Program-made: the position numbers and the translations under genes
NCBI GenBank assembly: GCA_035706005.1
Contig: DASSVO010000038.1
Coordinates: 1,192 to 65,191, forward strand
Length of the DNA stretch: 64,000 nt
Direction: 5' to 3'
DNA from: Gaiellaceae bacterium
GTDB lineage: Bacteria > Actinomycetota > Thermoleophilia > Gaiellales > Gaiellaceae
Shown: positions 5,370 through 22,755 of the stretch, piece by piece
Position numbering within the stretch: position 1 is the first letter of the stretch
How the letters are laid out: every line of letters begins with the position of its first letter
Notes under the pieces: generated by a model
Databases searched by the model: none
What the model saw: the letters and a program-made list of their open reading frames with translations, nothing else
Told to the model about the DNA's origin: nothing

Positions 5370-5603
5370 CTAGTGGCAGTCGGGCAGGTCCTCGAGACTG
5401 CTGCGATCGGTGAGGTCGATCTCCGCCTGCTCGCCGGTCACCGGGCTGACGACGTAGAGGCGATGTCCCGCTTCGATCGCGTGCCGGGCCTGTTCGAGAG
5501 TCCAGCGGTCGTCGTAGATGGCCCCGTTCCCCGATTCGGAGTACCCGACGGCTTCGACCCCCTCGTTGCCGAGGACGACGCAGATGATCCGGTACTCGGC
5601 CAA
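5370..5603 (-). CDS. DUF3892-like small protein
   Basis: 77 aa ending in LEDLPDC. Paralogue of the adjacent ORF. Confidence 0.6.
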   Translation of the reverse strand: MAEYRIICVVLGNEGVEAVGYSESGNGAIYDDRWTLEQARHAIEAGHRLYVVSPVTGEQAEIDLTDRSSLEDLPDCH

Positions 5604-5610
5604 CGGTCTG

Positions 5611-5883
5611 TCAGCGACGGCAGTCCGGCAGCGCCAGCAGGTTGTCGGGCACGTAGTCGTCGATCGTGGTCTTCAGGTACTTCCGCCCCCGGTGGGTCGA
5701 GACGGCGACCTGCACGGCGCGGGAACCGACGGTCACGAAGTACGAGTTCGTCCAGCGCTCGATGTCGCGGATGACCTCGTCCTCGGCCTTGTACCACCCG
5801 CTGCCACCGAGGGCCCGGATCCTCTCGTGCGGGTCGTAGTGGTCGGGCATCTTCGTGATGCAGGTCACCTCGAGATGCGCCAC
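5611..5883 (-). CDS. DUF3892 domain protein
   Basis: 90 aa: VTCITKMPDHYDPHERIRALGG...YFVTVG...YLKTTIDDYVPDNLLALPDC, the DUF3892 pattern as I recall it. Confidence 0.7.
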   Translation of the reverse strand: MAHLEVTCITKMPDHYDPHERIRALGGSGWYKAEDEVIRDIERWTNSYFVTVGSRAVQVAVSTHRGRKYLKTTIDDYVPDNLLALPDCRR

Positions 5884-5994
5884 GCCGTCCTCCCTCTCCG
5901 CCGCATTCAGACATTAGACACTACATCCGAGAGCGTTTCTAGACTCCTGTCACCCTGGCCGGGGCTGTAGCCAAACGAGCGAAAGGACAGTCCC

Positions 5995-6081
5995 GTGAAG
6001 GCACGGATTACCTTCCTGGCCGTCATCCTCGGCGCGGTTGCGCTCGCGCTGATCGTGGCCGACGGCACCGTCTGGCCCTAG
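5995..6081 (+). CDS. 28-aa signal-peptide-like small ORF (candidate pro-peptide)
   Basis: GTG 5995 lies 7 nt after AAAGGA. It translates (M)KARITFLAVILGAVALALIVADGTVWP and ends at TAG 6079-6081. An in-frame stop lies upstream at 5968. Too short for the ORF track. Confidence 0.35.
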   Translation: MKARITFLAVILGAVALALIVADGTVWP

Positions 6082-6099
6082 GCGTCCAGACAGATCGCA

Positions 6100-6129
6100 G
6101 GCGGCGGCGAGCAATTCGGCGCCGCCGCC
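6100..6129 (+). terminator. 10-bp GC hairpin between the small ORF and the regulator
   Basis: GGCGGCGGCG (6100-6109) / CGCCGCCGCC (6120-6129), followed by GCTCTCCTT. Confidence 0.35.
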
Positions 6130-6174
6130 GCTCTCCTTGAGGACCGACTGTGCTGACTGTAGTCTCCAAGCGAG

Positions 6175-7467
6175 ATGCCGAGGCGACCCTCAACGCACGT
6201 CGACAGTGCGGCTGCAGTCGGGGAGCGGCTTGCGGCAGCGAGGAACGCTGCGGGGCTGACGCAGCGCCAGCTTTCGTTCCCCGGCTGCACTGCGGCCTAC
6301 ATCTCGCGGATCGAGGCGGGAGCCCGAATTCCCTCGTACCAGATCCTGCGCGAGTTCGGAAAGCGGCTCGGTGTCAGTGCGGACTACCTGGCGACCGGCG
6401 TCGAGGAGGCCGGGCTCGTGGACGAGCTGTTCGAGGCGGAGGTCGCGCTTCGGCTCGACGACCTCGAGCAGGCGGAGCGTCTGTATCGACGCCTCCGGCG
6501 GAGCTCCGAGCCCGACGCGGTCGCCGTCGCGCAGGCCGACGCGGGCCTCGGGCAAGTCGCGTTGCGCCGCGGAGAGACGAGCGAGGCTATCGACCTGCTC
6601 GAGGCAGCGTCTGCAGCCGCGCTCCCGGCTCGCGAGGCGGAGACGGTGGCCGAGGCGCTGGGCAGGGCGTATGCAGCGCAAGGGCGCTTCGCGGACGCGT
6701 TCGACGTCTTCGGCCGCACCCTCGACTCGGCCAAGGAGCGGAAGGACCGCATGCTGATGCTCCGCTTCAGTGTGCTGCTCGCAAACGCCCTGATCGACTG
6801 CGGCCGCTTCGACCATGCCGAGGAGGTGCTCGGCGACGCGGTCGATCTCGCGCGGCGGACCCTCGACCCGAGGCTCAGGGCGGATCTGTACTGGTCGCAG
6901 TCGCGCCTCTACTCCTCCGAGGGGAGCCCCGATCTCGCTGCCCGGTACGCGCAGCTGACGATCTCGACGCTCCAGGACACCGAGCACACGGTGCAGGCCG
7001 CGCGCGCGCTCTTGCTCCTGGCGCAGATCGAGAACGACCGCGACCACGCGCAGGAGGCGCTCGACCTTCTCGAGGAGGGGGAACCGGCAATCCGAGCGGC
7101 GGGGAGCGCCGCGGACCGGGCGATGGTCGTGTTCGAACGCGCCCGCGCGCTCGAGGGCCTCGGCGAGGCCGAGGAGGCAGCGAGCCTCGTGCTCGGCTCG
7201 GTCGCTGCGCTTGCAGAAGCATCCCCGGTCACCGCCGCTCGCGGCTACGCCGGCGCGGCCGGCTTCTTCCGCTCGCGCGGAGACGACGCCAAGGCGCTGG
7301 AGCTCTACGAGCTCGCGGCCGAGCAGTTCCCCGCGCGCGACCGGCACCTCGCGGACGTCCTGACCGCGATGGCGGAGATCCACGAGGCGCGCGGCGACAC
7401 GGCGGAGGCGCTGCGCCTGCTCAAATCCGCGATGGCCGCGAGAAGCGGCTTGCGCAGCGACGAGTAG
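6175..7467 (+). CDS. HTH-XRE + TPR transcriptional regulator
   Basis: 430 aa. N-terminal GERLAAARNAAGLTQRQLS...YISRIEAGARIPS is an XRE-type HTH. The remainder is Ala/Leu/Glu-rich TPR-like repeats. Paralogue of 21406..22755. Confidence 0.85.
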   Translation: MPRRPSTHVDSAAAVGERLAAARNAAGLTQRQLSFPGCTAAYISRIEAGARIPSYQILREFGKRLGVSADYLATGVEEAGLVDELFEAEVALRLDDLEQAERLYRRLRRSSEPDAVAVAQADAGLGQVALRRGETSEAIDLLEAASAAALPAREAETVAEALGRAYAAQGRFADAFDVFGRTLDSAKERKDRMLMLRFSVLLANALIDCGRFDHAEEVLGDAVDLARRTLDPRLRADLYWSQSRLYSSEGSPDLAARYAQLTISTLQDTEHTVQAARALLLLAQIENDRDHAQEALDLLEEGEPAIRAAGSAADRAMVVFERARALEGLGEAEEAASLVLGSVAALAEASPVTAARGYAGAAGFFRSRGDDAKALELYELAAEQFPARDRHLADVLTAMAEIHEARGDTAEALRLLKSAMAARSGLRSDE

Positions 7468-21275: not shown

Positions 21276-21383
21276 CTAGAAACCGCCCCCGCTGCTCATT
21301 CCGAAGCCGGGGTGACCGCAGGCCAGGATGAAGGCGAAGAGCGACGCGATGAACAAGAGAGAGATGAGCCGTGCTTTCGTCAA
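21276..21383 (-). CDS. 35-aa lipobox-like small secreted peptide ORF
   Basis: TTG 21383 lies 7 nt after GGAGG (the SD region reads AAAGGAGGTGAC) and 22 nt after the regulator stop. It translates (M)TKARLISLLFIASLFAFILAC|GHPGFGMSSGGGF. It is the 3' part of track ORF 21276..21461. Confidence 0.45.
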   Translation of the reverse strand: MTKARLISLLFIASLFAFILACGHPGFGMSSGGGF

Positions 21384-21405
21384 GTTGTCACCTCCTTTCC
21401 GGTGT

Positions 21406-22755
21406 CTAGAAGCGGACGTCCTGAAGTGCCTCTGCAGCCCTGCGATAGAGCTCGGCTGCACGTGCGTGATCCCCCTGGCGGGCAGCGAGGTCGCCGCGCG
21501 CCATCCAGGCTGCGGCGCGGTGACTGCCTGACCCCAGCGTGCCGAAGCAGGCTTCGGCGTCGCGGAACGCAGCCTCGGCCTCGTCGAGCCGGTCTTGCTC
21601 GAGCAGTGCCCGGCCGAGCACGAGCTGCGCGTTTCCCATCTCGTCGACGTAGTCGACCCGGCCGTCGAGCAGCTCGAGCGCGTGACGCGCCTGCTCCTCT
21701 GCCTGATCGACGTTGCCCGTGCGCAGATGAACCTGCGCGAGGGACGAGACGGCGCGCCCGGCGTCGGCGTCCTGGCCGGCCTCGAGCGCGATCGAGAACG
21801 CCTCCTTGAGCAGCTCGACGGCGTCCTCCGTGTTCCCGAGCAGGAAGTTGAGTCCGCCGAGGTTGTTAGTCAGCTGCCCGACGTGGACGCGGTCGGCGAG
21901 CGCCGCGTACGCCTCGCGGGCCCGCTCCGCGTAGTTGCGCGCGAGCACCCAGCGGCCCTCGCGGTCGGCGACGAGCGAAGCCTGGAAGTAGGCGGCGCCG
22001 ACGGTGCGGAGGTCGTCGACGGCGTGGGCAAGCTCGAGCGCACGCTCCACGTCCTCCTTCGCCGCCTCGTAGTCGCGCTGGATGAGCCAGCAGCGGGCGC
22101 GCCAGGAGAGGATGTTCGCCTTCAGCGCATCGCACGGCAGGCCCGAGCGCTCCGCGAGCGTGAACGCCTCGTTGAGCAGGCCCAGCGCGGTCTGGATGCT
22201 GTTGAGCTGGACGCGGCAGCCGCCGAGCCGGAGCAGCACGTCCGCCCGCTCGACGTCGGAGAATGCCTCGGCCTCCGAGATCGCGCGCGCCTCGTTGAGG
22301 AGCACGAGGGCGGTGCGGTGCTGGCCGATGCGCATCTTCGCGAGCCCGGCCCCGACCAACGCGCGCACCTGCAGCTCGGGCACCCCGGTCGCGCGGGCAG
22401 CCGCGGGGAGCGGCTCGAACGCATCCGCCGCCTCCTCGTCCTCCTGCGCCTCGTACAACGCCTCGGCACGCGTAAGGGCCCCTTCGAGCCTGGCGCGCTC
22501 GTCGGTCGCAACGCCGTTCGCGAGAAAGCCTGCGTCGACTCCGAGACGGCCGGCGAGCCACTTGATCGTCTCCGCGGTCGGCCGCGTCTTGCCGCGCTCG
22601 ATCTGCGAGACGTATTCCTTGGAGAAGCGATCGCCGGCGAGCTCGCTCTGCGTCAGCCCGGCGGCAACGCGCAGCTGGCGAAGCCGTTCACCGAGGCGAA
22701 CGCCCTCGGGGCTGGTCCTGCGAGTGGTGCGGCTGGCTGTCTCTCGGATCGGCAT
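21406..22755 (-). CDS. HTH-XRE + TPR transcriptional regulator
   Basis: 449 aa. LGERLRQLRVAAGLTQSELA...YVSQIERGKTRPT is an XRE-type HTH, followed by multiple TPR-like repeats. Confidence 0.85.
   Translation of the reverse strand: MPIRETASRTTRRTSPEGVRLGERLRQLRVAAGLTQSELAGDRFSKEYVSQIERGKTRPTAETIKWLAGRLGVDAGFLANGVATDERARLEGALTRAEALYEAQEDEEAADAFEPLPAAARATGVPELQVRALVGAGLAKMRIGQHRTALVLLNEARAISEAEAFSDVERADVLLRLGGCRVQLNSIQTALGLLNEAFTLAERSGLPCDALKANILSWRARCWLIQRDYEAAKEDVERALELAHAVDDLRTVGAAYFQASLVADREGRWVLARNYAERAREAYAALADRVHVGQLTNNLGGLNFLLGNTEDAVELLKEAFSIALEAGQDADAGRAVSSLAQVHLRTGNVDQAEEQARHALELLDGRVDYVDEMGNAQLVLGRALLEQDRLDEAEAAFRDAEACFGTLGSGSHRAAAWMARGDLAARQGDHARAAELYRRAAEALQDVRF

Follow-up and report, generated by a model that had tools for sequence, protein, structure and literature searches.

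Here, we describe a two-gene cassette from a Gaiellaceae bacterium, in which a short open reading frame (ORF) of 28 codons precedes, on the same strand, the gene for a 430-residue transcriptional regulator that joins an XRE-type helix-turn-helix (HTH) to tetratricopeptide repeats (TPRs). The cassette lies in a 64,000-nucleotide stretch of contig DASSVO010000038.1 (assembly GCA_035706005.1), hereafter the window, which has a G+C content of ~70%. The small ORF is almost certainly a real gene, as judged from the way its relatives evolve; its homologues accompany the regulator in two different gene orders, and the residue in front of an invariant Trp in the peptide tail changes together with one residue of the TPR domain. 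From these comparisons, we lean toward the view that the pair forms a peptide-receptor module resembling the RRNPP, Rgg-SHP, and ComRS systems, in which the peptide would run through a full quorum-sensing cycle of export and re-import.

Conservation of the peptide gene and its pairing with the regulator

A first-pass annotation of the window had drawn attention to a GTG-initiated ORF with its own Shine-Dalgarno (SD) sequence, located 93 nt ahead of the regulator and followed by a 10-bp GC hairpin, and each of these features is present (Table 1). The ORF translates to (M)KARITFLAVILGAVALALIVADGTVWP; the 93 nt run from its stop (6081) to the regulator ATG (6175), and the two ORFs share a reading frame. 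The exact peptide was not found in a collection of 15 billion proteins, and peptides of this type, which we call WP-type for the Trp-Pro pair in their tails, matched no family in Pfam or NCBIfam; the exact 430-residue regulator is present in public protein collections. A scan for the regulator with one genome per species gave 534 confirmed matches, of which the best 80 (46–63% identity) were kept. A hidden Markov model (HMM) of the peptide matched an ORF in tandem with the regulator at 38 of these loci and a divergently oriented one at 30, leaving 12 without a match. With one unmatched locus set aside for want of upstream DNA, at least 68 of the 79 species-representative Gaiellaceae loci have a homologous ORF of 22–31 residues beside the regulator, the opposite of the lack of conservation that the first-pass annotation had named as grounds for giving up the peptide.

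The coding signature was examined in 37 distinct, independent tandem loci, where the small ORF lies 42–120 nt upstream of the regulator on the same strand and the sequence GAAAGGACAGTCC(C) followed by GTG or ATG is almost invariant. The encoded peptides share a pattern consisting of M[KRN]x[RK], ~18 hydrophobic residues, [AGS], [DE]G..WP, and 0–4 further residues. The peptide frame is free of internal stops in 37/37 loci and the +1 frame is interrupted in 37/37, diversity at codon positions 1, 2, and 3 is 0.38, 0.25, and 0.45, and the pooled ratio of nonsynonymous to synonymous substitution rates (dN/dS) is 0.51 in frame vs. 0.93 and 1.90 for the same bases in the shifted frames. A chance ORF is ruled out by this combination of conservation, open frame, dN/dS, and codon-position diversity. 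Genes of this type, with 25–31 codons, are mostly absent from annotations.

The order of ORF, strong hairpin, and regulator could also be that of a cis-acting leader (an upstream ORF or attenuator) that controls read-through of the hairpin and whose amino acid sequence is irrelevant. Selection at the amino acid level (the dN/dS of 0.51 and the invariant Trp), a stop codon placed 18 nt before the hairpin in the window, and a conserved -10-like box belonging to the regulator itself all speak against such a leader, and a peptide gene oriented divergently from the regulator, as found in 30 loci, cannot attenuate it. We rejected this explanation and give it hardly any credence.

Pairing with the regulator appears to be exclusive. 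The peptide HMM, run on 29,514 stop-to-stop ORFs from 200 loci and the whole window, gave 106 matches, each of them beside an XRE-TPR gene or at a contig end, with a single match within the window; the first-pass annotation had raised the prospect of a generic small membrane protein found independently of XRE-TPR genes, and no such copy occurs in this set. In the distant regulator clade, the homologous peptide gene is divergent, with start codons ~60–105 nt apart. A metagenome scan, which used a DNA pattern of ribosome-binding site (RBS) plus start codon and is biased toward the RBS of this family, returned 120 places, ~40 of which encode WP-type peptides and the remainder of which are chance matches in unrelated DNA; wherever at least ~300 nt of DNA lies downstream of such a peptide ORF, the regulator follows. 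When all neighboring ORFs were clustered, no other gene accompanied the regulator in both clades. The neighborhoods bear in addition on the idea that the ORF encodes a precursor of a ribosomally synthesized and post-translationally modified peptide (RiPP) or bacteriocin with a core ending in WP, the TPR protein serving in production or immunity. The shortness of the peptide and its conserved C-terminal core would suit this idea, as would a sub-threshold NCBIfam match of the regulator of a second cassette in the window (see below) to HaaT, a TPR protein associated with RiPPs (E=1.5e-7, 29.9 bits vs. a cut-off of 1125). Against it, conserved genes for modifying enzymes, a dedicated transporter, or immunity are missing from the neighborhood, the hydrophobic N-terminal part does not look like a typical leader peptide, and the partner has an XRE DNA-binding domain; we consider a RiPP precursor very improbable and rejected it for the lack of such enzymes.

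Four of the 12 unmatched loci hold variant peptides with charged residues toward the N-terminus and an IWP end, RGPIWP in L047, L054, and L075 and GSIWP in L074. In the divergent peptides of L047, L054, and L075 (minus strand, ~2840–2920), D/E residues occur in the N-terminal part and the RGPIWP end is kept, so the tail seems to be more constrained than the hydrophobic segment. In three further loci with closely related regulators (L011, L018, and L019), the peptide gene is genuinely lost, and an rmlD-like gene ends 35–65 nt upstream of the regulator; these regulators could be "orphan" receptors. The named relatives all belong to Gaiellaceae or Thermoleophilia, phylum Actinomycetota. One contig titled as a Burkholderiales metagenome-assembled genome (MAG) (L034, JAICUZ010000003.1) carries a typical Gaiellaceae-type cassette, MRTKLYLPAVLAAALALAALIAEGTIWP plus regulator, and is probably mis-binned. 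At a metagenomic locus (L169, plus strand, ~1385), an ORF that starts with MKARIVF after the conserved RBS extends to 144 residues, and the regulator behind it shares only 35% identity with that of the window; a frameshift, decay of the cassette, or a faulty assembly may account for this.

Covariation of the peptide tail with TPR residue 280

The window peptide consists of a basic N-terminus (MKAR), a hydrophobic core (ITFLAVILGAVALALIV), and a tail, A|DGTVWP. Among 94 distinct peptides (67 tandem and 27 divergent), the C-terminal tail is the most constrained part: the Trp is invariant (94/94) and is directly followed by Pro in 84. In the tandem peptides, A, G, or S precedes the acidic (D/E) position. 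The divergent ones are 22–26 residues long, have Gly at W-3 in 27/27, and end in G-P-[IVMF]-W-P, GTPWH, or GTPWS. Residues between the D/E and the Trp, and those after WP, differ among species. Tail types follow the regulator clades on the regulator tree, and WP cassettes from different clades occur together on one contig (L022, ...DGTGWPGG, and L039, ...DSPWPPI) and in one MAG (L025, ...DGSGWGP, and L038, ...DLPWPGK). Two cassettes with unlike tails in one genome may be likened to pherotype divergence. The first-pass annotation had compared a C-terminal heptapeptide, ADGTVWP, to mature PapR/NprX-type signals. The notion that the tail is the signal gains from its being the most constrained part of the peptide and from its covariation with a TPR residue, but the heptapeptide itself was a guess; because the small residue (A/G/S) before the D/E is conserved, the mature form would be DGTVWP rather than ADGTVWP.

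Covariation of the tail with its cognate TPR groove, which the same annotation had put forward as a check, was analyzed in 40 distinct pairs from clade B, each with a regulator sharing at least 68% identity with that of locus L009, by searching for regulator columns that track Pro vs. non-Pro at peptide position W-1. Residue 280 matches in 40/40 pairs: Pro at W-1 (xPWP) goes with Leu280 in 27/27 and any other residue with Gln280 in 13/13 (Fisher, 8e-11), the next-best columns being 172 and 278. On a neighbor-joining (NJ) tree, the peptide trait needs five changes, and residue 280 follows each time; in 100 bootstraps, the number of changes needed was two in 2 trees, three in 11, four in 40, five in 37, and six in 10. 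L157 and L166, for instance, with DGPWPGV tails and Leu280, are nested among Gln280 sequences with G[VA]WP tails. For the other positions of the tail, the regulator columns with the highest mutual information (246, 247, 284, 311, 347, and 391) fall mostly in the TPR part and not in the HTH. Block recombination may be a source of the match between residue 280 and W-1.

The TPR helix that holds residue 280 is the most conserved one, and the invariant Asn287 follows seven residues later, hence on the same helix face. The paper on the ComR-XIP structure calls a conserved Asn with hydrogen bonds to the backbone of the peptide "usual for TPR domains" (PMC5131891), and residue 280 and Asn287 may line the ligand groove. 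A direct interaction between tail and TPR domain is likely on this evidence. Alternatively, the peptide, as a small product of the membrane or of stress responses, might never touch the receptor directly, and its gene could be only a target or co-regulated neighbor of the regulator. Small genes next to a regulator frequently belong to its regulon, conserved cis elements are present in the leader of the peptide gene, and the regulator fold is a generic TPR. A perfect match between W-1 and residue 280 over several independent switches would be unexpected for a mere target, however, and the pairing outlasts a change of gene order while all other neighbors change, so we regard this alternative as unlikely.

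Relation to known peptide-receptor systems and a proposed mechanism

The regulator has more than 2,600 homologues, mostly of 427–432 residues and several from named Gaiellaceae, and orthologues in WP cassettes are 57–90% identical. Pfam places several TPR families (TPR_12, TPR_7, TPR_2, and others) after the HTH, and an AlphaFold2 model built with 24 homologues (mean pLDDT 88.9) is all-helical, with 17 helices in TPR-like pairs after the HTH. Among solved HTH+TPR proteins, PlcR, which serves as a reference receptor for RRNPP systems along with Rap, Rgg, NprR, PrgX, and AimR, alone gave a colinear match (2qfc; profile E=1e-11, residues 13–241), and a single-sequence search of the PDB with the N-terminal half aligned PlcR with residues 14–67 only. 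The best score among curated models came from the Streptomyces NsdA family (NF053720), at 47 bits vs. a cut-off of 75 and over residues 159–249 only.

RRNPP systems are characterized by a small propeptide, its secretion (through Sec and signal peptidase I or, for SHP/PrgQ-like peptides, PptAB), a receptor of 250–500 residues, TPRs, and adjacency of the two genes, the propeptide having basic N-terminal residues and a long hydrophobic center (PMC10075063), a profile that our peptide fits. Four of these five elements are found outright in the cassette. The peptide (28 residues in the window and 22–31 in the family) falls within the 10–100 residues expected of a propeptide, the receptor has 430 residues, its TPRs lie C-terminal to the DNA-binding domain (HTH at residues 15–72), and the spacing (93 nt in the window, 42–120 nt in tandem loci, and ~60–105 nt in divergent ones) is within the accepted range of -60 to 400 bp. 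With regard to secretion, the basic N-terminus, the ~18 hydrophobic residues, and the A/G/S before the tail D/E are compatible with export but are not proof of it. The taxonomic range of RRNPP, which comprises Bacillota and their mobile elements, does not extend to the actinomycetotal host.

The cassette seems to resemble Rgg/SHP and ComR/ComS of the streptococci most, in its short propeptide with a nearly contiguous core and tail and in the divergent gene order found in half the family. These systems likewise combine an XRE-type HTH and a TPR-like domain in the receptor with a peptide gene divergent from or beside it, and their propeptides of ~17–35 residues have a basic N-terminus, a hydrophobic body, and a C-terminal part that is the signal (PMC5131891). 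Differences lie in the receptor, which has ~285–300 residues in the streptococci and ~430 with ~8–9 repeat pairs here, in the host (Bacillota vs. Actinomycetota), and in the tail motif [DE]G..WP, which is new. The WW motifs of XIP place aromatic residues near the C-terminus, as does the Trp here. PlcR/PapR and NprR/NprX of the Bacillus cereus group share the HTH_XRE and TPR architecture, a mature signal formed by a C-terminal oligopeptide, and, for PlcR, a colinear profile match through the HTH and first TPRs, and NprR is close in length to the 430-residue receptor. PapR and NprX differ in being 40–50 residues long, with a Sec signal peptide and a hydrophilic pro-region, whereas almost nothing lies between core and tail here, and in being encoded downstream of the receptor, in contrast to an upstream gene with its own terminator-like hairpin; similarity to PlcR beyond the HTH is weak. 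We therefore file the pair as one that may work like an RRNPP system and not as a proven member by descent.

We propose that the propeptide, with its basic N-terminus and ~18 hydrophobic residues, enters the membrane with its N-terminus inside and its C-terminus outside, and that signal peptidase or an intramembrane protease would then cleave it behind the conserved small residue (A/G/S). The released peptide of 6–9 residues, with an invariant Trp-Pro core (DGTVWP in the window), would accumulate outside the cell and be taken up by an oligopeptide permease (Opp). Inside, it would settle on the concave side of the TPR superhelix, close to residue 280 and the invariant Asn287, and its binding would alter how the XRE domain binds DNA. 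Likely targets would be the DUF3892-like genes on the divergent side and the peptide gene itself, whose leader contains a conserved GC palindrome. Several points weigh against this scheme. The hydrophobic part of the peptide is fairly conserved too (LAVVLG..LLAL), and a stretch of ~18 hydrophobic residues would fit a stable membrane anchor equally well. The clustering of neighboring genes linked no exporter, protease, or Opp gene to the locus. No RRNPP-receptor-specific model of Pfam or NCBIfam matched the regulator, and neither TIGR01716 (Rgg C-terminal) nor ComR_TPR is among its NCBIfam matches at E<=1 or Pfam matches at E<=0.01. Foldseek against the PDB placed generic TPR proteins (LGN and designed CTPR) first and Rap proteins at ranks 27–50, a generic fold match that cannot decide family membership. 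The covariation consists of one perfect column pair, an NJ tree, and a structure-free helix-face argument, and the case for translation, export, cleavage, re-import, and binding is one of sequence comparison. Lastly, RRNPP signaling is regarded as confined to Firmicutes, as a hallmark of these bacteria and their phages and plasmids, and Actinobacteria are thought to signal with small molecules (PMC10075063); the RRNPP literature consulted here describes a Firmicutes system, and no actinobacterial example was found in it.

The main rival explanation is that the peptide is a resident, non-secreted small membrane protein that tethers or sequesters the TPR regulator or acts as an intracellular co-factor. 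The conserved hydrophobic segment is as long as a transmembrane helix, and tight genetic coupling and covariation with a TPR residue are compatible with any partner that touches the regulator directly. By the positive-inside rule, however, the MKAR N-terminus and acidic tail predict an N-in/C-out topology, which would put the co-varying WP tail outside the cell and leave 3–4 residues in the cytoplasm. Furthermore, the divergent peptides of 22–26 residues are barely long enough to span the membrane and still provide a tail, and the variants with charged residues in the "transmembrane" part keep RGPIWP. We give a resident membrane partner some weight, as a minority possibility, and prefer a secreted signal.

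Cis elements, neighboring genes, and a second cassette

The region upstream of the peptide gene is strongly conserved. At the aligned -10 position, the 37 tandem loci have TA[GC]AAC, TAGACT, or TAGCCT, and a scan for consensus sigma-70 promoters found no promoter, including at 5940–5945. The imperfect palindrome in the leader takes the forms CCCGGCCGGG, CCCGGCGCCGGG, and CCCGGGCCCGGG at the same place relative to the peptide gene in the tandem and divergent clades; it sits immediately 5′ of a stem that sequesters the SD, in the same spot in L001–L080, and could be the operator of the regulator or part of an alternative RNA structure. No regulon emerged when the window was searched for other occurrences of the leader palindrome or the -10 region. 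The leader segment GGGCUGUUC can pair with the SD region GGACAGUCC, and this stem occurs in the minimum free energy and centroid folds of the window and in the RNAalifold consensus of 34 tandem loci; RNAalifold predicted nothing from a mixed alignment of tandem and divergent loci. When the helix was named and then counted on 32 tandem and divergent sequences, 87.4% of cells paired vs. 82.5% in shuffles (0/500), a count made on the very sequences that had yielded the helix. Both partners are changed in five pairs, and controls slid by 1–3 columns reach only 31–64%. Both arms differ in the divergent clade, as in L045 (GGACCUCCC/GGGAGGUCC). Given this conserved pairing of leader and SD region, translation of the peptide is probably gated by the stem. 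A search of Rfam with 5850–6200 gave sub-threshold chance matches only.

Table 1. Positions of the features discussed, numbered from the first nucleotide of the window
Feature	Position	Strand	Basis or remark
Two small DUF3892-type genes	5370-5603 and 5611-5883	-	Divergent from peptide gene
-10-like hexamer TAGACT of peptide gene, putative promoter	5940..5945	+	Aligned column, inferred
Imperfect GC palindrome CCCTGGCCGGGG, candidate operator or RNA element	5953..5964	+	Conserved position
5′ untranslated region stem-loop, GGGGCUGU pairing with ACAGUCCC, predicted to occlude the Shine-Dalgarno	5960..5995	+	Folding, covariation
Shine-Dalgarno AAGGA	5983..5987	+	7 nt 5′ of GTG
Small ORF, 28 aa, GTG start	5995..6081	+	Product MKARITFLAVILGAVALALIVADGTVWP
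10-bp GC hairpin after the ORF, terminator-like, no U-tract	6100..6129	+	Perfect stem
-10-like TAGTCT, putative promoter of the regulator	6160..6165	+	9 nt before ATG, inferred
XRE-HTH + TPR transcriptional regulator, 430 aa	6175..7467	+	Pfam
HTH_XRE DNA-binding domain, residues 15-72	6217..6390	+	PF13560 (HTH_31), PF01381 (HTH_3); many invariant columns
TPR-like superhelix, residues ~84-424, 17 helices	6424..7446	+	Pfam TPR families, AlphaFold2, Foldseek
Codon of Leu280, in conserved helix AARALL[L/Q]LAxIENDR	7012..7014	+	Tail covariation
Second small ORF, 35 aa, TTG start	21276-21383	-	Beside regulator 21406-22755 (-)

The hairpin that follows the peptide gene has arms GGCGGCGGCG (6100–6109) and CGCCGCCGCC (6120–6129), a 10-nt loop, and a distance of 18 nt from the stop codon. 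An uninterrupted GC-rich stem of at least 8 bp lies between peptide stop and regulator start in 34/37 tandem loci, with at least 10 bp in 33. Stem sequences differ among loci, and 9/34 have at least five T within the next 14 nt. In our reading, the hairpin serves to terminate and insulate the peptide transcript. The case is weakened by the lack of a U-tract in the window, and the terminator scan did not report the 6100–6129 hairpin because no T-run follows it. TAGTCT (23 loci), TATAGT (9), or a close variant occurs 5–12 nt (mode 8–9) before the regulator start in 37/37 tandem loci, none of which has an SD at this start. The closeness of the -10-like box together with the missing SD suggests a separate promoter and a regulator mRNA that is probably leaderless. 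The N-terminal arm of the regulator, MPRRPSTHVDDP (6175–6210, residues 1–12), is nearly invariant in the family, with M1, H8, and D10 invariant, which is unusual for an N-terminal extension ahead of the HTH and may be related to leaderless translation or to DNA contacts. In the divergent loci (L032–L080), TAGTATA occurs ~15–25 nt before the regulator start and reads as -10-like on both strands, as TAGTAT for the regulator and TATACT for the peptide gene, which suggests overlapping back-to-back promoters within the 75–80-nt intergenic region.

Upstream of the peptide gene and on the opposite strand lie the two DUF3892-type genes and also a 2-oxoacid:ferredoxin oxidoreductase pair; a methyltransferase gene and a glyoxalase-family gene follow the regulator. 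In 16 tandem loci, the immediate divergent neighbor encodes a homologue of the 77-residue DUF3892-type protein, whose gene is for this reason a candidate target of the regulator; the 90-residue copy seems to be an extra insertion in the window genome.

The window holds a second cassette of the same build, with a 449-residue XRE-TPR regulator and a 35-residue ORF that encodes M-TKAR, a hydrophobic core, and a short conserved tail. This ORF begins 22 nt after the regulator stop, is preceded by the SD GGAGGTGA, and encodes MTKARLISLLFIASLFAFILACGHPGFGMSSGGGF. It is present in four orthologous loci (L201–L204) with the conserved tail GMS[SD]GGGF, and it stands in three different frames relative to the regulator stop, so that it is kept independently and is, on comparative grounds, real as well. 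Both cassette types also occur on one 2.83-Mb contig elsewhere (L003 and L201). The first-pass annotation had noted a resemblance between the two regulators, which holds for the N-terminal 138 residues only (35% identity, E=1e-11), and a difference in gene order, likewise found, the peptide gene lying downstream of the regulator in the 21276–22755 locus and upstream in the WP cassette. The tails (GMS[SD]GGGF vs. [DE]G..WP) and the identity among regulator orthologues (84–95% vs. 57–90%) differ as well. The WP-peptide HMM does not detect the second peptide, there is no detectable homology between the two peptides, and the two regulators are no more than remote paralogues. The further suggestion of the first-pass annotation, that regulator and peptide were duplicated as a unit, holds within the WP family (L022 with L039 and L025 with L038) but is unsupported for the two cassettes of the window, given the 35% N-terminal identity, the HMM miss, and the unlike tails and gene order.

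Gaiellaceae are an abundant, almost uncultured soil family of Actinomycetota, and the pair occurs in hundreds of their species representatives (the 534 confirmed scan matches), with a second, analogous cassette in the same genomes. Whether members of this family use encoded oligopeptide pheromones sensed by cytoplasmic XRE-TPR receptors is, in our judgment, an evenly balanced question; such signaling would be of the RRNPP type outside Firmicutes. Its signal would be anchored by Trp-Pro, tail and pocket (residue 280) would have diversified together in the manner of pherotypes, a genome would hold several cassettes in parallel, and the SD stem would gate translation of the pheromone gene. The covariation provides a testable specificity rule, in which Leu280 receptors go with xPWP peptides and Gln280 receptors with G[IV]WP, and the candidate signals are short enough to synthesize. 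If true, RRNPP signaling logic would reach into a further phylum and into a soil lineage that is dominant yet little known.

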